Origin: Flavobacteriales bacterium UBA4474
Lineage (GTDB): Bacteria; Bacteroidota; Bacteroidia; Flavobacteriales_D; Sanyastnellaceae
NCBI GenBank assembly: GCA_002389295.1
Contig: DGOE01000041.1
Span: forward strand, 15,080 to 79,079
Direction: 5' to 3'
DNA: 64,000 bases
Below are positions 8,301-45,521 of the stretch, one piece after another. Made by a program: the position numbers and the translations under genes. Within the stretch, counting starts at the first letter, position 1; each line of letters begins with the position of its first letter. The notes beneath the pieces were generated by a model. The model made no database searches, was not told where the DNA came from, and saw only the letters and a program-made list of their open reading frames with translations.

Positions 8301-8344
8301 ACCTTTTGATCATGCTCGGCCTCTTTGGAGACCCCTGTCAATAA
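5303..8344 (+). CDS. Secreted multidomain lysyl-oxidase-like copper amine oxidase with tandem dockerin-like C-terminal tail
   Basis: Signal peptide. PKD-like segment (NFSDESMGNVVTYDWSFAGG...FEVTLTVGD). PPC-like segment (SCDSAIDL...WYYFQVDTTGQYRFSTC...DTRIHLYDYC). Two GC..ACNY modules. LOX catalytic domain, internal dockerin-like pair, and a C-terminal double tail. No T9SS CTD. Confidence 0.85.
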   Translation: MLSIARLTLLRSAGLIVAFFCLSSWSVEAQDTIPAAWAGSLSGSQIASFEVTAGCSLLSFDISLDIVAPGSNWAGDMALAITAPNGNRIEVGGYNVNFGYVDAGGWPSGWNTNADGNFTASMTGLDQYNLAGSGCWLIEVMNAWNSAASSDYVMSLDLIGLCSEGDLEGCTDPAALNYNACAMLDDGSCLYPPLSANFDWTSSCGLPLTANFSDESMGNVVTYDWSFAGGTPATSSSASPEVVWDAPGTFEVTLTVGDGAGGTSTNMGTIDVGENLHRLEIDIVPDGFPQETSFVVVTEAGDTLHTGGAEGLDVCIPDGCVSVWMYDSGADGFSIGGTYQIRYDGTVLRDGEHFDAALLTLVGCPEGSSCDSAIDLLLPPNGDTLSFVAPLSSTWYYFQVDTTGQYRFSTCDLTGCDTRIHLYDYCDMAVFETSSEAFITMSDDDCGLQSVVTPVLISGETIYIQIEGDGDCNAGAGGVPFEAHYLGGIPGCMNIEACNYLPIATTADTCYLAGDPECPNIGPDLIINGPRAYSTLEMTLENSSDGCMIEEGCIQGYGSREIVRFDTEIANIGTEDYFIGAPSAQPDQFEWDACHNHYHYEGYAEYALYDASGSPLPTIGFKNGFCVLDLGSCNYGGGPQKYTCSNMGITAGCQDIYSRYLDCQWVDITDLDAGDYTLVIRVNWDYSPDANGSYELNYANNAVAVCFSFERDASGTAINFAKYEDCPVPVDCLGHPFGSEEPDCAGNCPGFLVKGDLDQDGEVDADDPLLYADLLIDGVESSAPCVDLNGDGTLSITDVALAADCAHLGHNHLGDNGVEDHCDWNGPLLVPDEEVMFSLILPHEDSSFVDLYVHNPQTWLSGWSVQLDGAAFTALTPLFDTTGFSHYFHLSASGMVFGVALEDSLVHKSTLPQPLVRLHFTDAAAEICMIGNAEVTNHDRHNVAASATGCIVPGTFCLGDINDNGIRDVGDLLVALGIFGCNTDCGPADVDGDGIVGVNDLLIMLGLFGDPCQ
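6868..7432 (+). other. Lysyl oxidase (LOX)-like catalytic domain
   Basis: PDLIINGPRAY...CMIEEGC...REIVRFDTEIANIGTEDYF...FEWDACHNHYHYEGY...IGFKNGFCVLDLGSC...GCQDIYSRYLDCQWVDITD...NYANN aligns motif-for-motif with animal LOX: WEWHSCHQHYH copper site, HKASFCLED lysine, GCYDTY tyrosine and DCQWIDITD. Confidence 0.8.
7529..7723 (+). other. Internal two-segment dockerin-like (EF-hand-like Ca-binding) module
   Basis: DCAGNCPGFLVKGDLDQDGEVDADDPLLYADLLIDG....APCVDLNGDGTLSITDVALAADCAH contains two D-x-[DN]-x-DG-x-[VIL]-x-x-x-D loop-helix segments. Confidence 0.55.
8168..8341 (+). other. Tandem Cys-bracketed dockerin-like C-terminal tail (two copies)
   Basis: FCLGDINDNGIRDVGDLLVALGIFGCNTDCGPADVDGDGIVGVNDLLIMLGLFGDPCQ* runs up to the stop codon. 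Confidence 0.7.
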
Positions 8345-8422
8345 TCCACAGGGCTTGGCGGCCAGAGGGTGCCATCAGCCTGCCCGGCTGGGCTAACTTT
8401 GGAGCGCTCCATTGAAACGCGC

Positions 8423-11400
8423 ATGGAATCTTCACAACCGAAAGACGCATCCACCTCCGCGGCCACGCGATCCGGACATCCCATCCGCATCGTTACGGCA
8501 GCTTCTCTCTTTGATGGCCATGACGCGGCCATCAACATCATGCGGCGGATCCTGCAGCGCTCGGGATGCGAGATCATCCACTTGGGCCATGACCGCTCTG
8601 TCGACGAAGTGGTGAACTGTGCCATTGAGGAGGACGCACAAGCCATTGCCATGACCTCCTACCAAGGGGGCCACATGGAGTACTTCAAGTACATGAAGGA
8701 CCTCCTGGACGAGCGCGGCGCTGGCCACATCCGCATTTTTGGCGGCGGCGGCGGCACCATCCTCCCCACGGAAATCGCGGAACTGCAGGAATACGGTATC
8801 GAGCGGATTTACCACCCTGATGACGGGCGGGAATTGGGCCTGCAGGGCATGATCGACGATGTCATCCAACGCTGCGACTTCCCCGTTGTGGGCGCGCCTT
8901 TTGGAGAGGCCGACCGGCTGAGTGAAAAGCGCCCTGGAGACCTTGCGCGGCTGATTACGGCTGCAGAGGTGGGCGCCAAGCCGTATGCCGATATCCTCGA
9001 CGGCATCAGGACAGCCGGCCAAACAGCCAACGTCCCTGTGCTGGGCATCACCGGTACCGGTGGAGCCGGTAAGAGCTCTCTGGTCGATGAACTGGTCCGC
9101 CGGTTTCTCATCGATTTTGACGACAAGCGCATGGCCATTGTGTCTGTGGACCCCTCCAAGCGCAAAACGGGCGGCGCCTTGCTCGGCGACCGCATCCGAA
9201 TGAATGCCATCGCTTCGGGGCGGGTGTACATGCGCTCTTTGGCCACGCGTCAATCCAACCTGGCACTCAGCCGCCATGTGGGCGATGCCCTCCAGATCCT
9301 GAAGGCGGCTGGATTCGACCTCATCGTGCTCGAGACCTCCGGCATTGGCCAAAGCGATACGGAGATCATGGAGCACAGCGATGTGGCCCTGTATGTCATG
9401 ACCCCTGAATTCGGGGCGGCCACGCAGCTCGAAAAGATCGACATGCTCGACTTCGCCGACGTGGTGGCGATCAACAAGTTTGACAAGCGCGGCGGCGCCG
9501 ATGCCCTGCGCGACGTGCGCAAGCAATACAAGCGCAACCACGAACTGTGGGAGGCCCAAGACGGGGACCTGCCCATCTTTGGCACCATTGCTTCGCAGTT
9601 CAACGACCCCGGAACCCACCGTTTGTACCGGACATTGATGAACGCCCTCTCGGAAAAGACCGGAGCTGTGCTGGCGAGCACCTTTGGTGCCGACGCCGGA
9701 GAGAGCGAAAAGGTTCATGTGATTCCGCCAAAACGGACGCGGTACTTGAGCGAAATCGCCGATGGCATCCGTGCCTACAACGATTGGACGGATGCCCAAG
9801 CTGCGCTTGCCGGAAAACTGCAGGCCCTGCGGATCGCACGCGCTGAACTGGCCGATACGGATGCCGATACGCTCCTGGCGGCGAAGGCGGAAGGGCTTAC
9901 ACGGGAACTTGACCCCAAGAACCTGCACTGGCTCGAAACATGGCCGGAGGAGGCCGACCGCTATCGCAATGCGGAGTACATCTTCGAAGTGCGGGGCAAG
10001 GAAATCCGGATCCCTACGACCACCAAGAGCCTGAGTCACCAGGACATCCCCAAGGTCAGCGTGCCTCGGCTCACCGGATGGCGCGACCTGTTGCGTTGGG
10101 GCCTGCAGGAAAACGTGCCCGGCGCTTTTCCCTTTACAGCCGGTATCTATCCCTTCAAGCGCCAAGGCGAAGACCCCACCCGCATGTTTGCCGGCGAGGG
10201 CGGACCGGAGCGAACGAATCGGCGGTTCCACTATGTCTCTGGAGACATGCCGGCCAAACGGCTGTCTACAGCGTTTGATTCCGTCACCCTTTACGGGCGC
10301 GATCCGGACCTGCGGCCCGATATCCATGGAAAGGTGGGCAACTCCGGGGTGAGCGTTTGTTCCCTCGACGATGCCAAGCGCCTTTACAGCGGTTTTGACC
10401 TCTGCGACCCCTCTACCAGTGTGTCGATGACCATCAACGGTCCGGCGCCCATGGTGTTGGCCTTCTTCCTCAACGCCGCCATCGACCAGCGCTGCGAGAA
10501 GTACATCCGTGCGCATGGATTGGAAGCCGAGGTGGAAGCCGTGCTCAAGGCCCGATGGGACGACCAGGGCCTCTCCCGCCCGGTCTACCGCGGTGCCTTG
10601 CCCGAGGGCAATGACGGATTGGGGCTGCTCCTGCTCGGGTGCACCGGTGATGAAGTGCTCGATGCCAAAACCTACGCCCCTTTGGCTGCCGAAGCGCTGT
10701 CCCAGGTGCGCGGCACTGTGCAGGCCGACATCCTCAAGGAGGACCAGGCCCAAAACACCTGCATTTTCTCTACCGAGTTTGCCTTGCGGCTCATGGGCGA
10801 TGTGCAGTCTTACTTTATTGACCAGAAAGTCCGCAATTTCTATTCGGTCTCGATTTCTGGCTACCACATCGCAGAGGCGGGGGCCAACCCCATCACGCAG
10901 CTCGCCTTTACCCTAGCCAACGGCTTTACTTATGTGGAGTATTACCTGAGCCGGGGCATGGACATCAACCACTTTGGACCCAACCTCAGCTTCTTCTTCT
11001 CCAATGGCATCGATCCGGAATATGCGGTGATTGGCCGCGTCGCCCGGCGCATTTGGGCCAAGGCCATGGACAAGAAGTACGGTGCAGATGAGCGGGCCCA
11101 AAAGCTCAAGTACCACATCCAGACCAGTGGCCGCTCCCTGCACGCGCAAGAAATCGACTTCAACGATATCCGCACGACGCTGCAGGCCCTCTACGCCATT
11201 TACGACAACTGCAACTCCCTGCACACCAACGCCTTTGACGAGGCCATCACCACACCTACCGAGGGCAGCGTCCGGCGGGCCATTGCCATTCAGCTCATCA
11301 TCAACCGGGAGTTGGGGCTGGCCAAAAACGAAAACCCGCTGCAGGGCGCCTTCATCATCGAGGAACTCACCGACCTGGTCGAGGAAGCGGTGATGGTGGA

Positions 11401-11809
11401 ATTCGATAGACTCACCGAACGCGGCGGGGTGCTCGGCGCCATGGAAACCATGTACCAGCGCAGCCGCATCCAAGAGGAGAGCCTGCACTATGAGACGCTG
11501 AAGCACACGGGCGAGTACCCCATCATCGGGGTGAATACCTTCCTGTCCAAGGAGGGCTCCCCCACCATTGTGCCGGGCGAAGTCATCCGCGCCACGCCGG
11601 AAGAGAAGCAGGGCCAAATCGACGGTCTTGCGGCGCTGCACAGCGCCCATGGCGACCGGACGGAAGCTGCCCTGGAAAATGTGCGGCGCATTGCTGTAGA
11701 ACACGGCAATCTGTTTGCCGAGTTGATGGAAGCGGTGAAGTCCTGCTCGCTGGGGCAATTGACCGAAGCGATGTTTGAAGTGGGCGGCGCCTACCGCCGC
11801 AACATGTGA
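8423..11809 (+). CDS. icmF: Fused isobutyryl-CoA mutase IcmF (B12-binding domain + MeaB-like GTPase + mutase catalytic domain)
   Basis: N-terminal B12 domain ([22 protein letters not shown], DxHxxG). P-loop G-protein ([24 protein letters not shown]). Large C-terminal methylmalonyl/isobutyryl-CoA-mutase-type TIM barrel. About 1128 aa from the ATG at 8423 (MESSQPKD). Confidence 0.9.
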
Positions 11810-33870: not shown

Positions 33871-34455
33871 TCAATAAAAGTGACCCGTGATCTCCCTTTT
33901 CGCCTGGAGGTAAGCCGCATTATCAGCGTTTCTGACGCCATTGATGGCCATACGCTTGGCGATTTCAATTCCCCCTTGCTGCATGGCCGCTGACTTATCC
34001 GGATTGTTGGTGAGCAGTTCAATCCGGTTTACCGCGTAATGGGAAAGGATGGCCACGGCCTCCGCGTAGCTGCGCTCATCTGCGCCATGCCCCATGGCCT
34101 CATTGGCCTCAAAGGTGTTCATGCCATCATCCTGAAGGTTGTAAGCTTTGAGCTTGTCCACAAGGCCAATGCCCCTTCCCTCCTGTCGCAGATAAATCAA
34201 CATACCGCCATGCTCTTTGAAATGCGTCAGTGCCGTGTGCAGCTGCTCACCGCAATCGCACCTGCGGCTGGCAAAGACGTCACCGGTCATGCACTCACTG
34301 TGAATCCGAACAGGAACAGGCGTGCCGTCCGCCTTATTGGCTTCAATGCCGCGATGAAGGACCACATGCGGGAAGCGGTCCCCCTCTTTGCCGAAGGCAG
34401 CGATTTCATACTCCCCCCACTCGGATGGCAACCTACTCGAGACCAACAACTCCAT
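33871..34455 (-). CDS. ribA: GTP cyclohydrolase II
   Basis: VRIHSECMTGDVFASRRCDCGEQL (three Zn-ligand Cys), YLRQEGRGIGL, LLTNNPDK. Confidence 0.92.
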   Translation of the reverse strand: MELLVSSRLPSEWGEYEIAAFGKEGDRFPHVVLHRGIEANKADGTPVPVRIHSECMTGDVFASRRCDCGEQLHTALTHFKEHGGMLIYLRQEGRGIGLVDKLKAYNLQDDGMNTFEANEAMGHGADERSYAEAVAILSHYAVNRIELLTNNPDKSAAMQQGGIEIAKRMAINGVRNADNAAYLQAKREITGHFY

Positions 34456-34517
34456 GGTGCAAAATTACGGCGCAACCCGGGTGTCTCGGCTCATGGCGTC
34501 AAGACAAGGACAAAGAG

Positions 34518-34545
34518 AAAGGGCCGCCCGGATGGGCGGCCCTTT
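34518..34545 (-). terminator. GC-rich hairpin terminator downstream of the giant surface-protein gene
   Basis: AAAGGGCCGCCC-GGAT-GGGCGGCCCTTT: a perfect 12-bp stem. On the minus strand it is followed by CTCTTTGTCCTTG. Confidence 0.7.
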
Positions 34546-34571
34546 CAGCATGGTATTTCAACGGGTTGGGC

Positions 34572-37500
34572 TTATTCGCAAGCCTGTCCGAATGCACCGA
34601 GGACGATCAACAGGTCGCCCACCGCAGTGGCACCGTCACCGTCGATATCCGTAGGACAATCGCTGGCCCCCGTGAAGATGCATGAGCCATCATCCGAACT
34701 GGAGGCGGGGTTGTAGTTGTCCGCATCCGCATAAGTGCAACCAAATACGAGCGGGGTAGCACAAGATCCATCGTCGCTTCCTGCGAAGGGGCTGAACTCA
34801 GCACTCAGCGGGTCGGTACAACCGGCACACGCCTCACAGCTGTTAAAGCAGACCACATCCAACGTCATGTCAGAACCGGCCACGGTCACCAGGCGGTTGA
34901 ATCCGCCCTGTCCATTGTCGGCACCACAGTCGGCTGGAACTGTTTCCTGACCATCCCAAACGTTGCCGTTGATGAAGATGTACTGATAGGAGCCATTCGC
35001 AAGCTGCACGGTGTACTCATACAAGCCCAAACCAGGGGTCGTCATGGGCGTCGATCCGGGGTCCCAACCTTGGAACGCACCCGCAACGTGAACACCTTCA
35101 GCAGAGACCGCTTGGGTGCTCATATCGAGTCGAATGGTCACCACGTAAGCACATGAACCATCGTCCGCGACCGCATCCGCATCGTAGTTCTGTGCGTCAG
35201 CGTCGGTACACCCTGTCGCTGCGTCACATGCGTAGCAAGAATTCCAGCAGACCACATCCAATGTGGATGCGCCCGCCACGTCGAAGGTTCTGTTTGTGAA
35301 ACCATCAATGGTGCTTGTGCAAACAGCGCTGGGGTCGAAGTTCTCCTGATCAGACCATCCGTCTACAGTGAACTTGTATTCCACTGTTCCGATAGCCAAG
35401 TCCACCGTGACTTCGTAGACGTTGTCCGAATCATCGTCGGTCATGGTGATGCAAGCACCACACCAACCGGCGAAACTTCCGTTGAGGTTTACCATGCCGT
35501 AAGTACCGCTGTAACCGTCCATGTCCACCTGGAAGGTGACAGGATACGTACAGCTGCCATTGTCGTCGGTCGCTATGTCAGAGTAGTTGGTTGCCGAAGC
35601 ATCGGTACATCCGAAAATCTGACCTCCGCCTTCACAGTCGGAACAGCTGTTCCAGCAAACGACCGGCTCGCTCTGGTCACCCGCCACCTGCAACACACGG
35701 TTGGTGAAACCGAAATTCTCGGTGACACAAGCACCAATACCGGCCAGGTTCTCCTCTGCCGTCCAGCCGTTCACCGTGTACTTGTACTCGTAGTAATCAT
35801 AGGCCAACTCAATGGTTGCACTGTACACTCCATCGCCATCCTCATCGAGGAGCGCGTTGCAAGGACCACACCAACCATTGAACGTGCCGTTGACATACAC
35901 GGAATCGAGATCTGCCAGCGGGTATTCCGCCATGTTGACACTGAAAGTCACGTCGTAGAGACAGCTGCCATTATTTGCAGTGGCCGCTGCATCATAGTTG
36001 GAGGCGGCATCGTCGGTGCAACCGAGAACGGCGTCACCGGCAGCGCACTCCAAGCAGGATGCCCAACACACGACTCCCAGATCAATGGCGTCCAAACTTG
36101 ACACATCCAGGTCGCGGTTCGTGAAGCCGCCCGCCGTGCGGACGCAAGGTCCAACTTGATCACCACCTGGGGCAAGGTCTTCCTGATCAGCCCAACCATC
36201 AACCTGGTACTTGTAGGATTGATTCTCTCCCTCCGGTACGATGAGGGTGCCGGACCAAATACCGTCCAAATCATCATCTGTCAACTGGTTGCAGTCGCCA
36301 CAGAATTCATTCCAAGAGCCGGACACATTAACGAAGCCAAACGTGCCGCCGTAGTTGTTCATGTCTACGGAGAAGGTGACCTCTGCGCCGACCACGCCAC
36401 CGCCACAGGCAGAGCAGCTGTTGAAACAGACCACGTCGAGTGTCTCGTCGGACCCACTGCGGTCATGTGTGCGGTTGAAACCACCCACACCATTGTCAAC
36501 GCCGCAACCTCCAGCAGCGAAGTCAGCGGTCTCGCCGCCTTCCTCAGTACCTGCACCGTTCGGGTAGGGGTTGCCATTGAAGAACTTGTAAGAAATGCCT
36601 GCAGGTCCTGAAATCAGCGCGGTCGCGGTGTACACCAAGTCACCGTCTGAATCGTCCATCAGAATGGCGCCGGCCTGCCACACGGGATCCGTGAAGCTTC
36701 CGATCATGTAAACACTGTCTGCAATCAAGTCCGTTACCTCGCTCATGTCCACCTGGAAGGTGACGTTCGCTGGATCGGGATCAACAGCGCATTCGGTAGC
36801 CTCACCGCACTGAGCGAAACAGCCGGTGTAAGAGACGGGGCCAGAACCGTCAACAGTAAGGGATCGGTTGCCTCCGCAATCCAATTCCTCCCATCCTCCT
36901 GCCCCATTCTGGAACTTGAACTCGTAAGCGCCCGCCTCGAGGTCGAGGGTAATGGACCAGCTGCCGTCTCCGTTGTCGGACATGGCGGTACCGGACCAAC
37001 CTTCAAAGGCACCCGCTGCGTACATGCCATCACCTGCCACGGTGATGTTGTCGGCCAAGACCGTCAAAGTCGCCGCATAGGTGGCCGCACCGCAAGGGTT
37101 GCAGCTTGCGTAGCAATGCACAGGGTGGCTGTAATCAGAGGTCGGGACATCGAAACCGCGGTTGGTATCACCGGGGTACTGACAATCTCCAGGAACAGTC
37201 TCCTCGAAGCCCCAAGCCGTTCCATTCATCCACTTGTACTGAACGTTGGTGCCAGGAGCAGCGTTGAAGCTGTAGGACCAAGTGCCGTCACCATTATCGG
37301 TGGCCAGGGTAGAACCCGGAGACCAACCTTGGAATGAACCCGCAACGAAGACTCCAATGGGGTTGACCTCCTCTTCGCTCATGTCCACCGTGATGGTCAC
37401 CATCACGCTGTCGGGGCCGGCACCACAGGGGGTGCATGTATCATAGGTATCGGCAATATTGCCGTCGGTCACCATCCACTGGCGGTTGGCGTAGTTGGCG

Positions 37501-39632
37501 TAGTCCGTAACCGGGGCGCAATCTGCGCCATCCACCATGTCTTGGATCAGGTTTTCCTGCACACTGTTGACCACCCAGAGGTACTCCATGGTCTCACTCG
37601 GAGCGGGATCAAACGTCACCTCCCAAAGGCCGGACGTTCCGTTGACAGTGGCCTCCGGACCACCAGCGGGGTCCCAGCCCCACCAAGGGCCTGTCAGTCT
37701 TACGGACGTCACATCGGCAACACCACTGCAGCTCACGTCCAACGTGGCCAAGAGGGGCTCGGTGGGCGGAGCGGAGCAGGATCCGTCCGTGCTGCACTCG
37801 GCGAAACACGTTGAAATGGTCGTATCCGAGACGATGTTCACCAGTTGGCGGTCGTTGAAGTTGGCCGGATCACCACAGGGAAGCCCGGAGAGGTTTTCCT
37901 TGCAGGAGTAGTCGGTGCAGGCGCCATTGGCAAACGTGTAGAAGCCGGTGTAGCCTGAGTCGAGATCCAACGTAATCGTCCAGATGTCGTCTCCGTCCGT
38001 GTCGGACATGGGGTTCGTACCCGGCGCACCAAAGTCAGCACCACCTGCCAAGAACACGCCTTCGGGCGAGGTGGCCTGGTTGGCCATGTTGACGTTGAGG
38101 GTCACGGAGACCGTTGTAGGATCGACGGGATTACCTCCGCCGCTTTCACAGGTGTCGCATGAGTTGTAGCATACCACGTCGAGGGTAGCATCCGCAGTAA
38201 CAATGATGGAACGGTTGGTGAAACCATCGATCGTGGACGTGCAGGACTCGCCGCCGGCGAATTCCTCCTGTGCCGTCCATCCGTCCAAGGTAAACTTGTA
38301 TTCCAGGGTGTCTGCGGGAACACTTGCAGTCAAGGTGTAGATGTTACCTCCTGCAGAAGCCATAGGAGCGCAAGGACCACACCACCCGTTGAAGCTTCCG
38401 TTGAGGTTGACCGTGCCATAGCTGCCCGTGTAATCGCTCATATCCACTTGGAACGTGACGTTGTATTGGCAAGAGCCATCATCGTAATCGGCCGCACCAT
38501 TGTAGTTGTTCGCTCCGGAATCGAGACATCCTCCTACACCTGCGGTGTTCTGCTCGTCACACGTTCCGCAGAAGTCGAAGCATTGAACAGCGAGTACCGT
38601 ATCTGCTACTCCGAGGTTGAAACCGCGGTTTCCGAAAGCATCACCGGGTATGAAGTCACATGCCGTGCCGCCGATGTTCTGCTCGTCTCCGCCCCAGGCG
38701 TTGATCATGTACTTAAACTCGTACCCTTGGCTGGGGGCGAGTGCCATGTCCACCGTGTAGACATTGTCTCCATCTGAATCGTCCATGGCCGTGCAGGGAC
38801 CGCACCATCCGTCAAAAGATCCCGTGACGTAAATGGTCTCTCCACCGGTCAAACCGGCGTTGGACATGTCCACCTGGAAGGTGACGATCGGCTCGTAGGA
38901 TGGTGTCTCACAGGAACCATCCGTAGTGCACTGGCTGAAGCAAGTGCTGATGGTCGTGTTCTCGGTGATGTTGCTCAAGAGACGATCACTGTAGGGACCA
39001 TCCGCACAGGGCTGACCGTTGATGTTCTCCTTGCAGCTCCAGTCGCCGCAGTTGCCGTTCAAAAAGGTGTAGTTCCCCGTGTAACCAACCGCCACAGGCA
39101 TGGTGATGGTCCAGATGTCGTCACCGTCGGTGTCGCTCATCGGATTGTCTCCGGCTACGCCAAAATCAGCGCCGCCCGCCAGGAATACACCATCTGGCGA
39201 AGTGGTCTCATTGGCCATGTTCACATTGAACGTGACGTCCACCGTAGAGGGACCTGCCGCTTCCACGATGATGGTTCCCACCATGCCCTGGGCCGCGTGT
39301 GAGCCGATGCTGCAGTCGTAAGTGTAGGTTCCGGGGGTGTTCAATGTCACCGTGCCCATGCAGACACCGCCTACCGAGCCGCTGTTGGCCCCGAGGGAGA
39401 AATCCTCCGGGTTGCCAAAAGACGTTCCCGTTTGGGTATCTGTCACGCCGTTCACATTGTGAAATCCGCCTTCATTGAGAAAGGCGATCGATTCACCAGC
39501 GGTGACAGTCAGCGTTGAGGGATTGTAATAATAGTTGCCTGCGAGCACGGTGTGGTCTGCACCGGTGCAGTCTTGAGCCTGAATTGAGCTGTAGCAGAAT
39601 ACAGCGAGGCTGAGCAGCAAAATATTGCGCAT
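34572..39632 (-). CDS. Giant (1686 aa) secreted protein: N-terminal cupredoxin + 12 CBM-like beta-sandwich repeats + 6 Cys modules + dockerin-like tail
   Basis: Start at MRNILLLSLAVFCYSSIQAQ (39632). Repeats have the form VTF.VDM....g.V.v.GsFnGWcg.c..M.DdDgD.vYt.t..l..g..EYKf.vdgW...E. Modules of GCTD...NY.....DDGSC.Y lie between repeats. Ends in CPTDIDGDGATAVGDLLIVLGAFGQACE*. Confidence 0.85.
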   Translation of the reverse strand: MRNILLLSLAVFCYSSIQAQDCTGADHTVLAGNYYYNPSTLTVTAGESIAFLNEGGFHNVNGVTDTQTGTSFGNPEDFSLGANSGSVGGVCMGTVTLNTPGTYTYDCSIGSHAAQGMVGTIIVEAAGPSTVDVTFNVNMANETTSPDGVFLAGGADFGVAGDNPMSDTDGDDIWTITMPVAVGYTGNYTFLNGNCGDWSCKENINGQPCADGPYSDRLLSNITENTTISTCFSQCTTDGSCETPSYEPIVTFQVDMSNAGLTGGETIYVTGSFDGWCGPCTAMDDSDGDNVYTVDMALAPSQGYEFKYMINAWGGDEQNIGGTACDFIPGDAFGNRGFNLGVADTVLAVQCFDFCGTCDEQNTAGVGGCLDSGANNYNGAADYDDGSCQYNVTFQVDMSDYTGSYGTVNLNGSFNGWCGPCAPMASAGGNIYTLTASVPADTLEYKFTLDGWTAQEEFAGGESCTSTIDGFTNRSIIVTADATLDVVCYNSCDTCESGGGNPVDPTTVSVTLNVNMANQATSPEGVFLAGGADFGAPGTNPMSDTDGDDIWTITLDLDSGYTGFYTFANGACTDYSCKENLSGLPCGDPANFNDRQLVNIVSDTTISTCFAECSTDGSCSAPPTEPLLATLDVSCSGVADVTSVRLTGPWWGWDPAGGPEATVNGTSGLWEVTFDPAPSETMEYLWVVNSVQENLIQDMVDGADCAPVTDYANYANRQWMVTDGNIADTYDTCTPCGAGPDSVMVTITVDMSEEEVNPIGVFVAGSFQGWSPGSTLATDNGDGTWSYSFNAAPGTNVQYKWMNGTAWGFEETVPGDCQYPGDTNRGFDVPTSDYSHPVHCYASCNPCGAATYAATLTVLADNITVAGDGMYAAGAFEGWSGTAMSDNGDGSWSITLDLEAGAYEFKFQNGAGGWEELDCGGNRSLTVDGSGPVSYTGCFAQCGEATECAVDPDPANVTFQVDMSEVTDLIADSVYMIGSFTDPVWQAGAILMDDSDGDLVYTATALISGPAGISYKFFNGNPYPNGAGTEEGGETADFAAGGCGVDNGVGGFNRTHDRSGSDETLDVVCFNSCSACGGGVVGAEVTFSVDMNNYGGTFGFVNVSGSWNEFCGDCNQLTDDDLDGIWSGTLIVPEGENQSYKYQVDGWADQEDLAPGGDQVGPCVRTAGGFTNRDLDVSSLDAIDLGVVCWASCLECAAGDAVLGCTDDAASNYDAAATANNGSCLYDVTFSVNMAEYPLADLDSVYVNGTFNGWCGPCNALLDEDGDGVYSATIELAYDYYEYKYTVNGWTAEENLAGIGACVTENFGFTNRVLQVAGDQSEPVVCWNSCSDCEGGGQIFGCTDASATNYSDIATDDNGSCTYPVTFQVDMDGYSGTYGMVNLNGSFAGWCGACITMTDDDSDNVYEVTVDLAIGTVEYKFTVDGWSDQENFDPSAVCTSTIDGFTNRTFDVAGASTLDVVCWNSCYACDAATGCTDADAQNYDADAVADDGSCAYVVTIRLDMSTQAVSAEGVHVAGAFQGWDPGSTPMTTPGLGLYEYTVQLANGSYQYIFINGNVWDGQETVPADCGADNGQGGFNRLVTVAGSDMTLDVVCFNSCEACAGCTDPLSAEFSPFAGSDDGSCATPLVFGCTYADADNYNPASSSDDGSCIFTGASDCPTDIDGDGATAVGDLLIVLGAFGQACE
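34575..34658 (-). other. Cys-bracketed dockerin-like C-terminal tail
   Basis: CPTDIDGDGATAVGDLLIVLGAFGQACE* lies directly at the stop codon. Confidence 0.7.
39261..39563 (-). other. Plastocyanin/azurin-like type-1 copper (cupredoxin) domain
   Basis: NPSTLTVTAGESIAFLNEGGFHNV....PGTYTYDCSIGSHAAQGMVGTIIV. Candidate ligand set is His (FHN), Cys (YDC), His (GSH) and Met (QGM), with the canonical C-x(n)-H-x(n)-M spacing. Confidence 0.7.
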
Positions 39633-39817
39633 TGGGTTTGGGTTACAGTTTGGTTCTTTCCAAGAACGAGCAATATAGTCCGAGAAGGTGTACTTCATAC
39701 ACCAAGTGCATATTCTTGGGAATAACTTGGGTATTATCAGGAAGCAATGGCCATTTAATGGTTGTGTACCATCCGTCAATACAGCGGCACAGTCTTTTTC
39801 GAAATGGACCTCGACGT

Positions 39818-41191
39818 TTACAAATTTGCCTCCACCAAACCGTCTGAACGCAAGTCTGAACGCCGAATGAAGAGGTTGAGTAGGCCGGCAATGATCAAAC
39901 TTATACCTGCCAGCACCATGGTCTGAATCACGTCTTCTCCCAAAAATGTTTTGTACGCCCAGTTGATTCCGCCCAGGGCAGCTGCAATCTGTGGGATGAC
40001 AATAAACATGTTAAACACGCCCATGCCCACGCCCATTCGATCGGCGGGAATGGCCCCGGAGAGCATGGCATAAGGCATACTCAATATGCTGCCCCAAGCG
40101 ATGCCGATCAACGCGAAACTCCACTTCAGGTTGCCAGCGGTTTCAGGTGTCCAGAGTACCATGGTCAGAAAGCCCACCCCGCCGAGCGTCAGGCTCGCCA
40201 AGTGTATCAACCTCTGGTCTATGCCTCGGCGGCTCGTCCATACTGAGAGAAGCAGCGCAAAAACCATGCTGCTCAGGCCATACACCCCCATGGCGCTCGA
40301 AACGGCGTTGGCCGCCTCGTTGTACGCGGCACTCAACACATTGAAGTCCTCCACACCATCCTGGGGCAAGGCAGCCGCAAAAACATGCTCAGTGAGCGCA
40401 GGGGTAGCAAAAGACCACATGGTGAAAAAGGCGAACCAACTGAAAAACTGGACCGCACCCAACTTGACCATGACACTCGGCATCCGCGCTATGAATGCGG
40501 AAATTTCCAAAGCGCCTGCGAACAGTCCGCGCTTTTCTGCCCGCTCAAGTTCAAATGCAGCCATGTCAGCCGGAGGTTCTTCTGTCGTCTTGAATACGGT
40601 GTAGAGAATGCTCGTCATGAATACGAAAGCACCTACCGCAAAGGAGACGTAAACGCTTTGGGGAATCTCACCCGCTCCGGCTTCATTTGATACGCCCATC
40701 GCGGTGACGAACCAAGGAAGGTTGGAGGCCACCCACGTTCCAATCCCAATGATCAAGGTCTGCAACACAAAGCCGTAGCTCCGCTGCTCCTCAGGCAGTT
40801 TGTCGGCCACCAATGCCCGGAACGGTTCCATGCTAATGTTGATGCTCGCATCCAAAATCCAGAGAAAGCCTGCCGCCATCCACAACGCAGAACTATATGG
40901 CATGAAGAACAAGGCCAGCGAACTGAATACCGCGCCGAGCAGGAAGTATGGCCGCCGTCTGCCCCACCGCGGATGCCAGGTCCTGTCGCTGAGATAGCCG
41001 ATTATGGGCTGCACCAACAGCCCTGTCAATGGTGCTGCAATCCACAGCATCGGGATCTCGTCCTTGGATGCTCCGAGCGTTTGAAAAATCCGAGACATGT
41101 TGCCCCCTTGGAGGGCAAAGCCGAATTGGATGCCGAGAAACCCGAAACTCATGTTCCAGATTTCCCAAAAGGAAAGCCGTTTGGTGTTCAT
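39818..41191 (-). CDS. SLC45/GPH-type MFS sugar:H+ symporter (sucrose/maltose-transporter-like)
   Basis: 12 TM helices. N-terminus SFWEIWNMSFGFLGIQFGFALQ. Signature LSDRTWHPRWGRRRPYFLLGA after TM2. Confidence 0.8.
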   Translation of the reverse strand: MNTKRLSFWEIWNMSFGFLGIQFGFALQGGNMSRIFQTLGASKDEIPMLWIAAPLTGLLVQPIIGYLSDRTWHPRWGRRRPYFLLGAVFSSLALFFMPYSSALWMAAGFLWILDASINISMEPFRALVADKLPEEQRSYGFVLQTLIIGIGTWVASNLPWFVTAMGVSNEAGAGEIPQSVYVSFAVGAFVFMTSILYTVFKTTEEPPADMAAFELERAEKRGLFAGALEISAFIARMPSVMVKLGAVQFFSWFAFFTMWSFATPALTEHVFAAALPQDGVEDFNVLSAAYNEAANAVSSAMGVYGLSSMVFALLLSVWTSRRGIDQRLIHLASLTLGGVGFLTMVLWTPETAGNLKWSFALIGIAWGSILSMPYAMLSGAIPADRMGVGMGVFNMFIVIPQIAAALGGINWAYKTFLGEDVIQTMVLAGISLIIAGLLNLFIRRSDLRSDGLVEANL

Positions 41192-41264: not shown

Positions 41265-43568
41265 TCAGGGGCAGGTGCTGTCGAAACTCGAAAGGAAGTC
41301 CACGAGGTCGGCAGCGCCGATCAGGCCATCACCAGTGGTATCAAACGGACATGACGAGCCTGTGGTGAACGTGCACGTGCCGTCGTCAATGGTCATGGTG
41401 TCGTCATAATTGTCCGCGTCTGCATATGTGCAACCCGCGCAGCTTTCGTAATCGCAATCACCTGAGTCTGTATTGGCGCTGGCGTCATAATTACAAGCAT
41501 AGGCGTCCAAACAACCATTGATTGGCGCGCTTTCTCCATCGGTAATGACCGCGTCGTCAGAGTCCGCCTCTCCTCCACCTCCACTTTCCGAGGAAATGCT
41601 GGAATCGTCCGTGAAGTCTTGTCCGGTGATGCTCCGCTCAGCAGAAGCATTCTCTGCAGTGTAGGTCAAACCCGCTTGGAAGAAGAAACTCTCCCCCAAA
41701 GGCATGGTGACCCGTGCAATGCGAACCGCATTGGCACAACCCGGACGGTTCAATAATTCCTCGCACCTGTTGGTTGGCTCACCCCCCGTTTCTCCGACGA
41801 TCTCCCACCCCAGCGTATCTCCGTCAGCCGCCAGCAATTCGCTGTCAAACTCAGTGGCAGAGGAAACGGCTGCCGTGTCAAAGCCGATGGCTTGAAGTGC
41901 CGGCCCCGAACCAATGGTGCCCCCAATGGTAAACCACGAATCAGCCAAGCAGTCTCCATTGAAGTATTCCGCGCCGTCCACCTCTACAGAGGCATCCATA
42001 TAATGCGGCATCCAGACGTCGCAGCTCGCGGACTGGTAAACAGCGCTAAACGGCTCGATGCGCAAGCGGGTTTCTCCATTTTTGACACCGAGTACCCGCT
42101 TCAAACGGATGGCGTCGGGTGGCAACAATGCATAGACCTCATTGGTATAGGTGCCAGCAGGAGCCCCAGCACCGTTGTAATTCGTACTGATGGGGGCTAT
42201 GGCCAGGATACCCGCGAAGACACAATCGGAATCATCCGAGATGATGGCGCTGGCGTTATAGTTGGTGGCCTCCGGATTGGTGCACCCCGCGCAGGACAGG
42301 TATTCACATATGGCCTCGGTCTGAATCTGTGCTTCGGGGTCGTAGTTACACGCTGCGGGATTAGAGCATCCTCGGCACGACAAAAACTCACAGTTGTCTT
42401 CAGTTGTCGGCACTTCAGGATCAAAGTTGCACGCCAATGGATTGCCACAGCCTTCCTCAGCCGAGCCCACGTCCTCGATACAGTTCCCATCCTCATCTGG
42501 GATGGTCAAATTCGGGTTGGTGTCATCGCAATCAATGGGCTGATAAGCATAAGCTTCCCCAAATTCAGAACAGTTGATATTGAAAGGAGACCCAATCAAA
42601 TCCGTCGTGTCTGCACTGCGGTAATTGTCGTTGTCAACGTCCCTAAAGCAAGTCTCGGCCCCATCGCAGTTTCCATCGATGCCGTCACCGACCAAATCCA
42701 TCGGATTGCCCGGATATGCCAGCGCCGTGCCGTCGTTGCAATCCCCGCCTTGTGTGGCGTATCCCGGTCCTCCTCCGCAGAGTTCTACAGGGGTCGTACC
42801 GTAACCATCTCCATCATTGTCCACATAAAACGTTGATGGATAAACACATTCGCACGGAGCTCCAATCATGAATGTCTCAATGTCCCACTGATCATCTCCA
42901 AATTGACCTTCCGGAAAGACCTGGATGTTGATGTTGCCAGAAAGCACGCCATCTGTAGTGAATTGTCCGAGCAGCACCCTGCCCGTCGTGTCCGGATAGC
43001 CGTTGGCATCGCCATTGAGCACATACCACGCTCCGCCTACAGCATCATCCATGGCCACGTTGCCCCCACCGTTGAATGAAACATCCCAAGCCTGAGCAGG
43101 AGAGGTGACGTATGAAACCGCGGCTTCTCCCTCGGCCGTGTTGGGAACAGCTTCGATACCGATCGAAACCCAGCTGTCATATGCAAGTGAAGGAAATGTG
43201 GAGTACAGCGTCGGGAAGATGCCATTGGGCGTGGTTCCGCCCAATGCATCCTGATAAAAACTGGTGGTCGTCTCGATGGCCAATGGGTATTCGGCATCAC
43301 CGAAAACGGCCGAAACGAAATCCATGGGGTGAGCCGAAACGAAATACAGCCTGTAGGTGGTCATCCCCGATAAAGGCCCTTCACCGTGCACATAGACCGT
43401 ATCCAATTCCAAACAGTATGGCCCCGCAGTTGGATTGTAGTTGCAAGCGGATTCATCCAGACAAGCCTGTCCAAAGACTTGACTTGCGCAAAAGCACAGC
43501 ACTAATGCCAAAAAACGATCGAAGCGGATACGGAATGGGTTCATTGTGTGATAGTTGGGATGACTCAA
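41265..43568 (-). CDS. Secreted 767-aa protein: YRLY...DSWVSIG...GRVLLGQFTT domain(s), 6 Cys modules, dockerin-like tail
   Basis: Signal peptide ...LVLCFCASQVFGQ. No catalytic motif recognised. Ca-binding-like D-rich stretch (DNDGDGYG, DGIDGNCDG, DVDNDNY). Ends in CPFDTTGDGLIGAADLVDFLSSFDSTCP*. Confidence 0.8.
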   Translation of the reverse strand: MSHPNYHTMNPFRIRFDRFLALVLCFCASQVFGQACLDESACNYNPTAGPYCLELDTVYVHGEGPLSGMTTYRLYFVSAHPMDFVSAVFGDAEYPLAIETTTSFYQDALGGTTPNGIFPTLYSTFPSLAYDSWVSIGIEAVPNTAEGEAAVSYVTSPAQAWDVSFNGGGNVAMDDAVGGAWYVLNGDANGYPDTTGRVLLGQFTTDGVLSGNINIQVFPEGQFGDDQWDIETFMIGAPCECVYPSTFYVDNDGDGYGTTPVELCGGGPGYATQGGDCNDGTALAYPGNPMDLVGDGIDGNCDGAETCFRDVDNDNYRSADTTDLIGSPFNINCSEFGEAYAYQPIDCDDTNPNLTIPDEDGNCIEDVGSAEEGCGNPLACNFDPEVPTTEDNCEFLSCRGCSNPAACNYDPEAQIQTEAICEYLSCAGCTNPEATNYNASAIISDDSDCVFAGILAIAPISTNYNGAGAPAGTYTNEVYALLPPDAIRLKRVLGVKNGETRLRIEPFSAVYQSASCDVWMPHYMDASVEVDGAEYFNGDCLADSWFTIGGTIGSGPALQAIGFDTAAVSSATEFDSELLAADGDTLGWEIVGETGGEPTNRCEELLNRPGCANAVRIARVTMPLGESFFFQAGLTYTAENASAERSITGQDFTDDSSISSESGGGGEADSDDAVITDGESAPINGCLDAYACNYDASANTDSGDCDYESCAGCTYADADNYDDTMTIDDGTCTFTTGSSCPFDTTGDGLIGAADLVDFLSSFDSTCP
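41268..41351 (-). other. Cys-bracketed dockerin-like C-terminal tail
   Basis: CPFDTTGDGLIGAADLVDFLSSFDSTCP* lies directly at the stop codon, preceded by GCTYADADNYDDTMTIDDGTCTF. Confidence 0.7.
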
Positions 43569-43708
43569 TATAGCGAGTCCATCAAATAATCAGCGCTGAT
43601 ATTCGTCATTATCCCCATCCGCACCCACGAATAGAATGTAATGCAGACCCTGCCTACATGGATTCCGGAAACCAATACAGTTGGACATTAGCGCTTAACT
43701 GGCCTTGT

Positions 43709-45451
43709 TTATTCTCCACATGGTTGTCCATATAAAGAAAGGAATACCAAAAGGTCAGCGGATCCGATCAGACCGTTGTCATCGGTATCAAACGAACAGC
43801 TTCCGCCTCCATCGCAATCAAATTCGCAGGACCCATCATCCAAATCAGCATCGGCATCATAGTTCGTGGCATCCCCATAGGTACATCCTTGCGTTCCTAC
43901 AATCAGGAATTCGCACGTCCCATTGTCTTCCGTCGCATTGGCGTTGTAATTCTGCGCATCTGCATCGGTACAACCTGAAATCTGGCATGAACCATCGTCA
44001 TCTGTGGCGGCGGGATTGTAATTGTCTGCGGTGGGGTCCGTGCAACCAGGCACTTCATTTTCATCGCAAATGCCATCTTCATCAGCATCGTTGAGACAAT
44101 TGCCGTCGCAATCCACAATATTGTTCGGGTAGTCTACAGGGTACTCACAGAGCGTATCATCAATGATTACGGCCTGTGGGTTGTAGTTGCAGGCTTCGGC
44201 ATCCGAGCAGCCTGCGCAGCTCAAGAAATCACAAGACCCATCATCAAAGTCAGCGGCGGGATCGTAGTTGCAGGCACCGGCATCCGTGCAGCCCGGTGTC
44301 ACAACAGGGAAAGTCAATGTTGTCCCCGTCACTTGAATGTTTGTCCCAGCAGAATTGCGGTATTGGATGTTGAGCAAAATGTCCACGATGCCATCTGTGG
44401 TGAATTGTCCGAGCAAAACCCGACCATCATCATCTGGGAAGGCCGCAGGCTCCAAATTGGGCAAGATGTACCATGTGCCCCCCACAGGGTCGTTCACTTC
44501 GATATTGCCTCCCGCCTCGAAGGCCAAAAAGTCAATGCCGATGAAATCAACAGACCCCGTATTGTCATCGGAACCGATGGTCACCCATGAATCGTATGCC
44601 AAATTGGGGAAGGAGGGAAACAGGATGGGATTGATGGTGTTTGATAACGAACCACCCAATACATCTTGGTAGAACGAACCTGTTGTCGTGATGCTGAGCG
44701 CAGTATCCTGCAAGCCGTACACGGCCACAACTTGAGCGCCGGGGTCCGCCAAATTCGCGTAGACCCGATAAGTATCGAAGCCTGCCGCTGTGGTGTTTTC
44801 TGCTACGAGCTCATAAGAGAGGCCTTCAAAGTCGGTCTGCTCATAGCCCACGGAAATACCGGTCTCGTTGAAGACGTTGAGGTTTTCATCGCGCCACTGA
44901 ATGTTGCACAGCATGTTCCACCCTCCCGTTGTGGTCAACTGGGCGAGCAGCACGCGGCCGTCTGCATCAGGTTGCGCTTGGACTTGGTTTGGCGTCACAA
45001 AGACACTGCCGCCTACACCATCATTGACGAAGAAATCGCCCCCGTTCTCAAATGCGAGAGAAGCCGAAGACCAGGCAGCGCCGCCAACGGCACCAATGTT
45101 GCTCGGCAGGCTGCTGTCCTCCTGCCCCAGCGTGATCCAAGAATCATAGATCAGATTTGGAAAAGAAGCGTAGAGCAGCGGATTGATGGATTCAGGGGTG
45201 TAGTTCCCAAATGCGTCCTGGTAAAAACCGGCCGTCGAGGTGATGGACAAGGCAGAAGGCGCTTCTGCATACAAAGCCTGGGCGATGTCCGTCGGGTTGT
45301 CAAAATTGGCGTAGACCCTGTAGGTGGTGCCCACAGACGACGTGGCCACTGTTTCGTAGGTCAATCCTGTGAATTCAGCTTTAGAGGTGAAACCCAACAG
45401 GAGCAAGGACGCCGCAATGCATAAACGGCGTAGAGGAAAGTACTTTGGCAT
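43709..45451 (-). CDS. Secreted 580-aa protein: two YRVYA...DSW[IV]T[LI]G...GRVLL.Q.TT domains, 5 Cys modules, dockerin-like tail
   Basis: Start at MPKYFPLRRLCIAASLLLLGFTSKA (45451). Two about 160-aa internal repeats. GCTDAGACNYDPAADFDDGSCDF and related modules. Ends in CSFDTDDNGLIGSADLLVFLSLYGQPCGE*. Confidence 0.8.
   Translation of the reverse strand: MPKYFPLRRLCIAASLLLLGFTSKAEFTGLTYETVATSSVGTTYRVYANFDNPTDIAQALYAEAPSALSITSTAGFYQDAFGNYTPESINPLLYASFPNLIYDSWITLGQEDSSLPSNIGAVGGAAWSSASLAFENGGDFFVNDGVGGSVFVTPNQVQAQPDADGRVLLAQLTTTGGWNMLCNIQWRDENLNVFNETGISVGYEQTDFEGLSYELVAENTTAAGFDTYRVYANLADPGAQVVAVYGLQDTALSITTTGSFYQDVLGGSLSNTINPILFPSFPNLAYDSWVTIGSDDNTGSVDFIGIDFLAFEAGGNIEVNDPVGGTWYILPNLEPAAFPDDDGRVLLGQFTTDGIVDILLNIQYRNSAGTNIQVTGTTLTFPVVTPGCTDAGACNYDPAADFDDGSCDFLSCAGCSDAEACNYNPQAVIIDDTLCEYPVDYPNNIVDCDGNCLNDADEDGICDENEVPGCTDPTADNYNPAATDDDGSCQISGCTDADAQNYNANATEDNGTCEFLIVGTQGCTYGDATNYDADADLDDGSCEFDCDGGGSCSFDTDDNGLIGSADLLVFLSLYGQPCGE
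43712..43798 (-). other. Cys-bracketed dockerin-like C-terminal tail
   Basis: CSFDTDDNGLIGSADLLVFLSLYGQPCGE* lies directly at the stop codon, preceded by GCTYGDATNYDADADLDDGSCEF. Confidence 0.7.
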
Positions 45452-45521
45452 GGTAACCTGAAGATACGAACCAACCCCTGCGCGAGCCGCAGACCAAGAG
45501 GTGATTTTTGTCACTGCTGTC

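Follow-up and report, generated by a model that had tools for sequence, protein, structure and literature searches.

Marine Flavobacteriales are among the main consumers of algal glucans. Non-catalytic proteins that hold glucan at the cell by means of tandem starch-binding modules include SusE and SusF of Bacteroidota and Sas6, a dockerin-bearing amylosome protein of Ruminococcus bromii. Another group of secreted, non-hydrolytic proteins, including Cbp2D and Cbp2E of Cellvibrio japonicus and TERTU_2913 and TERTU_3803 of Teredinibacter turnerae, combines carbohydrate-binding modules (CBMs) with redox-type domains, and a role of these proteins in extracellular electron transfer while polysaccharides are broken down has been discussed (PMC8981238, PMC12542752, PMC10916295). 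Here we analyse a gene of an uncultured marine flavobacterium (Flavobacteriales bacterium UBA4474, assembly GCA_002389295.1), located in a window of 64,000 nucleotides (contig DGOE01000041.1, positions 15,080 to 79,079) whose own numbering is used below. Its 1,686-residue product, hereafter called the target protein, carries an N-terminal cupredoxin domain (the head) and an array of 12 CBM48/CBM20-clan repeats. We favour the view that it is a non-catalytic glucan-capture protein with a type-1 copper site, and we put the probability of this reading as a whole at roughly 60%.

A first-pass annotation, made from the DNA letters, had considered this combination unusual, and our full-text literature searches found no paper describing it. 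Searches for cupredoxins with CBMs in Bacteroidetes, and for plastocyanins or cupredoxins with the type IX secretion system (T9SS), similarly yielded no paper on such a protein. Both building blocks are known families, and the head has already been named by automatic annotation. What the papers searched do not describe is the combination itself, its 12-module scale, the lack of both a T9SS C-terminal domain (CTD) and a lipobox, and the genus-wide set of cupredoxin-headed exoproteins. The target protein is a member of a conserved family and not a one-off.

The gene and its copper head

The open reading frame (ORF) extends over 34572..39779 on the minus strand, the strand of all parts of the gene described below, and it is the sole long ORF of the stretch shown. 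Initiation at the ATG at 39632, a start Met used by many orthologs, yields exactly the 1,686-residue product announced in the first-pass annotation, and the gene thus comprises 34572..39632 (1,686 codons, with the stop at 34572-34574). The protein begins with MRNILLLSLAVFCYSSIQAQ, followed by DC. This segment (39573..39632) reads as a Sec signal peptide, is kept in orthologs and is probably cleaved between AQ and DC. It has no lipobox Cys at position +1, since an Asp precedes the Cys, and three orthologs lack that Cys. The domain borders, set by eye and then confirmed with a hidden Markov model (HMM), delimit a signal peptide, a cupredoxin, 12 repeats, six Cys-containing connectors and a single dockerin-like tail.

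A domain with a plastocyanin-like ligand set had been proposed at 39261..39563. PF00127 (Copper-bind) indeed matches residues 31-124 with 37.6 bits, for a cut-off of 21.2, and alignment with plastocyanins, conservation in orthologs, AlphaFold2 modelling and Foldseek searches together support a type-1 copper cupredoxin over residues 21-127 (39252..39572). Among PDB sequences, the head aligns over its full length to plastocyanins (best match 1b3i, E 2.5e-7). The ligands His58 (39459-39461), Cys107 (39312-39314), His112 (39297-39299) and Met117 (39282-39284) are in register with those of plastocyanin. The Cys-His loop exceeds that of plastocyanin by two residues, and the C-x4-H-x4-M spacing of the ligands is that of rusticyanin. 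With the plastocyanin equivalog TIGR02656, the head scores 37.3 bits, below the cut-off of 87.85. Judged by its sequence, it is a plastocyanin-like cupredoxin, not a plastocyanin proper.

The head is 74-94% identical among 25 orthologs. In 24 of them, the four ligands are intact, as are the Asn beside His58 and the spacing of the ligand loop, the exception being one sequence with a Cys-to-Ser replacement; the ligands are also invariant in a 41-sequence family alignment. Cys22 and Cys91 are lost jointly in three orthologs, and a disulfide between them is therefore probable. The AlphaFold2 model built with the family alignment has a mean predicted local distance difference test score (pLDDT) of 97.4 and contains nine strands of at least three residues. 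A Foldseek search with this model gave 431 PDB matches at E<=0.001; every one of the 50 listed is a cupredoxin or a cupredoxin-fold copper domain, the closest being AcoP, plastocyanins, pseudoazurin and amicyanin, with template modelling (TM) scores of up to 0.75. Together with the tail, the head is the best-conserved part of the protein (median identity of 81%, versus 37-77% for the repeats), which favours a specific function for it. Its sequence and its predicted fold thus identify the N-terminal domain as a true type-1 copper cupredoxin, and it presumably binds copper.

The repeat array, its connectors and its tail

With an HMM derived from the repeats, we detected exactly 12 copies in the target ORF, the number given in the first-pass annotation, each of 103-128 residues. 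Their proposed kinship with CBM20 and CBM48 modules is borne out by Pfam matches of the whole protein, all above curated cut-offs (AMPK1_CBM, 142 bits; CBM_48, 110; X25_BaPul_like, 73; CBM_20, 44). Taken singly, seven of the 12 repeats match AMPK1_CBM and five match the pullulanase X25 domain. A phmmer search with the whole repeat region found no match among PDB sequences, and the CBM of AMPK was reached only with the profile of the 12 repeats. This profile matched the AMPK beta1 CBM (E 1e-4), a GH13 pullulanase, the glucoamylase starch-binding domain, SIP2, SEX4, GlgB and SusF. The AlphaFold2 model of repeat R10 (pLDDT 89.5) has as its nearest PDB folds the AMPK-beta CBMs (1z0n; target-normalised TM scores of 0.69-0.76), with the CBM48 of a feruloyl esterase (6rzn) and the CBM20 of STBD1 also close.

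In the profile alignment, the AMPK beta1 sugar-contacting residues W100, K126, W133 and N150 correspond to the repeat motifs GSFNGW, EYKF, DGW and FTNR, respectively. According to this remote alignment, all four equivalents are present in half of the repeats (R2, R3, R6, R7, R10 and R11). R9 is complete except for a Phe in place of the first Trp, and the set is partial in R8, which lacks the second Trp, and in R12 (W/I/W/N). R1, R4 and R5 are divergent subtypes classed as lacking the contact set, R5 keeping only the first Trp and the Asn. The repeat pattern of the first-pass annotation thus stands as to copy number and fails for the contact residues of these three. Among 726 non-identical homologous repeats, the contact positions are occupied by Trp (82%), Lys (81%), Trp (70%, with Phe or Tyr in a further 23%) and Asn (86%), and a family-specific Glu (99%) and Arg (100%) are conserved as well.

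From the N-terminus, as delimited by reading the sequence and by the repeat HMM, the array starts with R1 (38892..39251), which has GGADFG for GSFNGW and neither the W nor the K contacts. R2 (38535..38891) is a canonical CBM48-like repeat with W, K, W, N and a C-G-x-C pair; R3 (38118..38462) is also canonical. They are followed by R4 (37758..38117), of the same divergent subtype as R1, and by R5 (37410..37757), which represents a third subtype (LTGPWWGWDP...). R6, R7 and R8 (36390..37409) have four Cys residues each and no C-G-x-C pair, whereas R9, R10 and R11, which together with connectors c2 and c3 occupy 35217..36389, are canonical six-Cys modules. R12 (34824-35144) lies in a segment that also contains connectors c4, c5 and c6 (34674..35216). 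The extra Cys pairs and the VVC[WF]NSC..C endings noted at first reading are real.

The WCGPC motif of R2, R3 and R10 gives weak thioredoxin matches in Pfam and NCBIfam, and we considered and rejected a thioredoxin-like reading of it. Over 956 homologous repeats, this site follows the pattern C-G-x-C, where x may be G, A, T, S, D, P or yet another residue, and its two Cys residues come and go as a pair, independently of the other four. Such behaviour fits a small structural disulfide beside the first Trp.

Six modules interleaved with the repeats had been described as containing three Cys residues. Six connectors of 24-26 residues are present, with the motif GC.D..A.NY......DDGSC; they have two Cys each, however, the central Cys found in the modules of neighbouring secreted proteins being absent. 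Apart from c4 to c6, these are c1 (GC...NY...DDGSC.Y; 38463..38534), c2 (35955-36026) and c3 (35544-35615). The protein terminates in a 33-residue tail ending with CPTDIDGDGATAVGDLLIVLGAFGQACE (34575..34673). The first-pass annotation was correct in calling a dockerin-like tail, although not a type I dockerin: a single D.D.DG....DLL loop-helix is bracketed by two Cys residues, whereas type I dockerins (PF00404) consist of two tandem 22-residue Ca-binding repeats. The Dockerin family is not listed among the Pfam matches of the target protein at E<=1.

The same type of tail terminates at least 22 ORFs of the genome, coding notably for GH13, GH16, GH81, esterase, lysyl oxidase, FG-GAP/ASPIC and Kazal-type proteins (for example C63:4738-7992, C119:1712-4900, C144:1253-3385 and C168:29916-32909). 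The window contains copies at 34575-34673, 41265-41350 and 43709-43800. This Cys-bracketed module looks like a lineage-specific sorting or anchoring tag, and the target protein is probably extracellular or surface-located. Export as a lipoprotein or by way of a T9SS CTD was rejected, as neither signal was found: the Pfam scan of the target protein, run at a loose threshold, detected no T9SS type A CTD (PF18962), while the paralogs in C74 and C125 have one. A match of one CBM repeat to the T9SS 'plug' model NF052315 (35 bits, cut-off 100) was dismissed as fold-level similarity.

An indication that the repeats bind sugars comes from other proteins of the same genome, a 2.54-Mb assembly that is 93% complete. 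The repeat HMM matches 11 further ORFs, and Pfam shows the module fused to GH13 alpha-amylases (C63, C119), a GH16 enzyme (C144), a GH81 enzyme (C168) and a BD-FAE esterase (C23). In these enzymes, the repeats are C-terminal to the catalytic domain and the proteins end in the same dockerin-like tail. Because appendage to GH13, GH16 and GH81 enzymes is the classic position of a CBM, sugar binding is credible. As the module serves both alpha-glucanases and beta-1,3-glucanases, we describe the ligand simply as a glucan. Of note, a more distant flavobacterium (L108, relative P0052, 421-11462) harbours two proteins composed of CBM repeats and a T9SS CTD, encoded directly after genes for CBM30-like, GH16 and GH3 proteins and for a further T9SS-CTD protein. 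The set is of the laminarin type.

Distribution, genomic context and expression

A search of 5.8 billion proteins collected 589 relatives, whose source names point to marine Flavobacteriales metagenome-assembled genomes (MAGs). Approximately 25 of them have the head, the array and the tail, with lengths of 1,091-2,001 residues indicating that the repeat number is plastic; many more have the array and the tail without the head. One ortholog is named in NCBI just 'plastocyanin/azurin family copper-binding protein'. In whole-genome searches, the gene was found in all 19 genomes of the genus, with ORFs of ~1,550-1,730 codons where contigs allow. It is therefore a core gene of a single uncultured marine Flavobacteriales genus, which is present in many ocean metagenomes.

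The cupredoxin behaves as a promiscuous module. The genome contains six copies, on carriers whose other parts are unrelated. Besides the target gene (C62; N-terminal head, CBM array and tail), ligands are intact in a protein with a head, an unknown region and a T9SS CTD (C74), in a 1,560-residue secreted protein with an internal copy between repeated unnamed domains and a dockerin-like tail (C36:55400-60079, plus strand), and in a copy at a contig end (C1). In two other copies, the ligand Cys is replaced by Ser and a ligand His by Gln, namely the head of a protein with fasciclin domains and a T9SS CTD (C125:11309-13411, minus strand) and the internal copy of a protein with no other Pfam family found (C29:4670-6676, plus strand). 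Genomes of the genus have 3-7 cupredoxin copies, versus 0-1 in 12 other families of the order.

Beyond the genus, a search of 1.84 billion representatives with the head gave 1,318 clusters (50% identity), of which 340 reached E<=1e-10. The best 147 representatives with a cupredoxin are 102-1,521 residues long, with the domain mostly N-terminal and many T9SS-type ends, and ~88% of 164 family domains keep Cys, His and Met. In eight of these 147, which come from other orders and have different tails, the CBM repeat is present as well; pairings other than that of the target protein include CBMx3-cupredoxin-T9SS CTD and cupredoxin-CBMx2-T9SS CTD. GTDB species genomes yielded 393 matching stretches, and the best 80 belong nearly all to uncultured Flavobacteriales, Crocinitomicaceae or Saprospiraceae MAGs. 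The presence of the head on unrelated carriers suggests that its function is generic rather than glycan-specific. As a side observation, several MAG records labelled archaeal or proteobacterial hold the flavobacterial cupredoxin module at 58-79% identity (L042, L062; L081, labelled Nitrosopumilus sp.; L105, Comamonadaceae; L088, Neomarinimicrobiota), and mis-binned contigs are the likely cause.

The gene order around the target gene is kept: fba, pgi, one or two genes for unnamed secreted proteins, a major facilitator superfamily (MFS) symporter gene, the target gene and ribA. Some orthologs in this slot have the head and others lack it, which places its gain or loss inside a single orthologous group. 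The upstream neighbour (39818..41191, minus strand) codes for a putative sugar/H+ symporter of the GPH-sucrose/SLC45 type, and it is adjacent to the target gene in all orthologous loci examined. Its product matches the GPH sucrose/H+ symporter model over the full length, with a score of 84 bits that is far below the cut-off. We did not accept gene order as such as a sign of function, because synteny among relatives covers the whole neighbourhood, with def, ribA and the FKBP gene.

Marine metagenomes of about ten studies contain near-identical DNA, and 20 metatranscriptome runs, which belong to at least seven studies, include the 5' part of the target gene. We compared five metatranscriptome runs with the locus by contig depth. 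In four of them, from three studies, the depth was ~5-54 over the target gene and 0-4 over the flanking MFS and ribA genes, the MFS gene having nearly no RNA coverage where the target gene was well covered. The RNA contigs cover ~34553-39625, and one of 5,016 nucleotides is limited to the target gene. Coverage ends at an intrinsic-terminator-like hairpin (34517..34546, minus strand) located 26 nucleotides past the stop codon, with a 13-bp stem containing 10 GC pairs, followed by the T-rich tail TCTTTGTCCT. RNA confined to the gene in this way points to a transcript of its own that is well expressed. A scan of 34300-34700, which lies downstream of the gene and was the sole region covered, revealed no sigma-70-like site; the tool does not cover Bacteroidota promoters.

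The two genes for unnamed secreted proteins farther upstream (41265-45514, minus strand) are represented in metatranscriptomes similarly to the target gene. A 4,193-nucleotide RNA contig (run X27) spans both, and they are thus probably co-transcribed. At 43951-44063, two RNA runs from different studies have 39 other letters in place of 111 nucleotides in the Cys-connector region of the 601-residue protein, a strain-level length variant in a repeat region.

Function and comparison with known systems

On the reading that we favour, the 12 disulfide-stapled beta-sandwiches would form a multivalent line for the capture of soluble or particulate glucan outside the cell, the ligand being laminarin-type beta-1,3-glucan, alpha-glucan or both. 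The array would work alongside the GH13, GH16 and GH81 enzymes that share its module and its tail, and capture might be the step upstream of the adjacent SLC45/GPH-type symporter. The head would probably have a general copper-dependent role outside the cell, in the transfer of single electrons or in copper handling.

Several observations weigh against this proposal. The equivalence of the AMPK contacts depends on a remote profile alignment (E 1e-4) and on fold similarities with TM scores of 0.5-0.76, and the contact set is incomplete in five of the 12 repeats. The top matches include CBM48 structures of feruloyl esterases (6rzn and 8bf3), and the CBM48 fold is not always an alpha-glucan binder. 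The attachment of the module to alpha- and beta-glucanases alike is compatible with either ligand. A Bacteroidota protein with neither a T9SS CTD nor a lipobox has no evident route to the surface. The adjacency of the symporter gene is weak evidence because synteny reaches unrelated housekeeping genes. Contig depth is a coarse measure of expression, and one of the five runs (X33) showed no enrichment over the target gene.

Among other interpretations, the target protein might be a CBM-targeted electron shuttle. The array would hold the copper centre on a polysaccharide, and single electrons would pass to or from a glycan-acting oxidative enzyme, as proposed for Cbp2D and Cbp2E. The strict conservation of the type-1 ligands and the high conservation of the entire surface of the head (81% median identity) form the pattern expected of an electron-transfer interface between proteins, and the recurrence of cupredoxin and repeat CBMs together in other orders, with other sorting tails (8/147), points the same way. 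There is also precedent for this arrangement in the CBM-fused redox proteins (PMC8981238, PMC12542752, PMC10916295). The first-pass annotation had suggested as partners a lytic polysaccharide monooxygenase (LPMO) or the neighbouring copper oxidases, and neither was supported. LPMO_10 (PF03067) is absent from the genome and from 18 further genomes of the genus, including one closed 3.0-Mb genome; an LPMO as partner of the copper head is thus not supported. The copper oxidases are two lysyl oxidases encoded at 5303-11809 of the window. In genomes of the genus where both share one contig, the lysyl oxidase genes lie ~25-30 kb from the target gene in the same syntenic region (for instance G009:C1 701422-733730). 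Lysyl oxidases are known to work with O2 and not to require an electron-donating protein. Just 11 of the 19 genus genomes encode a multicopper oxidase. The tail-bearing proteins scanned, ten of which beyond the enzymes named above are FG-GAP/ASPIC, Kazal-type or unnamed proteins, contain no recognisable haem, pyrroloquinoline quinone (PQQ) or other redox domain. Finally, the same head is found on non-carbohydrate carriers, and in degenerate form on fasciclin proteins, and it is therefore not glycan-specific. We consider this shuttle unlikely.

A broader version of the redox idea, which we regard as an equally speculative outsider, is that the genus, abundant and uncultured in the ocean, displays type-1 copper centres on several giant exoproteins, and that the one described here is parked on glucan by the 12-module array, performing extracellular one-electron chemistry without an LPMO. 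Candidate partners would then be an unrecognised oxidative enzyme, redox-active dissolved organic matter, superoxide, or lysyl or multicopper oxidases co-docked via the dockerin-like tail. If true, marine carbon turnover would involve blue-copper redox proteins of a new class, targeted by CBMs.

Somewhat less probable than a shuttle is a role in copper handling, in which surface heads would bind copper tightly, either buffering toxic copper or holding it for secreted cuproenzymes (two lysyl oxidases and a multicopper oxidase). The head recurs on carriers that are otherwise unrelated, and the genus joins its 3-7 cupredoxins with lysyl oxidases (present in 19/19 genomes, in two copies in 18 of them, and in 2 of 12 other families); both are lacking in most of the order's remaining families. 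Nevertheless, lysyl oxidases and the cupredoxin expansion co-occur at the genus level only, and co-occurrence in a single lineage amounts to one evolutionary event. Type-1 sites are buried and kinetically inert, and none is known to serve as an exchangeable copper store. Moreover, one copper per 1,686 residues would make a poor buffer.

We find it improbable that the repeats are Ig-like spacers of a structural stalk or adhesin instead of sugar binders. The repeats with incomplete contact sets, the variation in repeat number among orthologs and weak PDB profile matches that include filamin would agree with a surface fibre; the module nevertheless occurs in the classic CBM position on catalytic proteins, and its contact residues are kept in 70-86% of the 726 repeats. 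The first-pass annotation had also envisaged a non-redox docking fold, with the cupredoxin as a protein- or ligand-binding beta-sandwich whose copper is structural or absent; this seems real for the paralogs in C125 and C29, and small clades elsewhere have likewise swapped Cys and His (S/Q, S/D) or His alone (Asn) with the domain persisting, but it is very improbable for the target protein, as the retention of ligands, Asn and loop spacing in 24/25 orthologs would be difficult to account for if no metal were bound.

Should laminarin or alpha-glucan prove to be bound by the array, the target protein would be a capture protein of large size and high abundance, non-catalytic and working outside the classic SusC/D scheme. 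If the head is redox-active at the cell exterior, extracellular copper redox chemistry would take part in polysaccharide use in a lineage without LPMOs, a situation that no published model covers.

Compared with the systems described so far, glucan capture by the target protein would be comparable to that by SusE/SusF and Sas6, which are also non-catalytic and multimodular, and a faint precomputed match to CBM_1st_SusF is recorded for orthologs. The target protein differs from these by having 12 modules rather than 2-3, and a copper head. Unlike SusE/SusF, it has no lipoprotein signal, and no SusC or SusD is encoded among the neighbour genes examined; its dockerin-like tail is a single Cys-bracketed loop and not a two-repeat dockerin. 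Its repeats find their best profile and structural matches in the AMPK-beta glycogen-binding module and the CBM20/48 clan, and most of them share GSFN.W, YKF, DGW and N with it. They are, however, only 17-24% identical to these modules and ~30 residues longer, with a C-x3-C-x2-C ending, often a C-G-x-C pair, and the invariant family-specific Glu and Arg. Cbp2D, Cbp2E and the TERTU proteins, which functionally are the nearest analogues, contain a c-type cytochrome (X183) and YceI-like domains, and their hosts are LPMO-containing Gammaproteobacteria. Proteins of the Cbp2D/E type have cellulose-binding CBM2 modules. The target protein, unrelated to them in sequence, has instead a blue copper domain and 12 CBM48-like modules, in a genome without LPMO. 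Lastly, the head shares its fold and its His/Cys/His/Met set, in register, with plastocyanin, pseudoazurin, amicyanin and AcoP. It is only ~30% identical to single-domain cupredoxins of the plastocyanin type and has an extra predicted disulfide, and whereas those are free periplasmic or lumenal carriers, this one sits on a 1,686-residue secreted protein.

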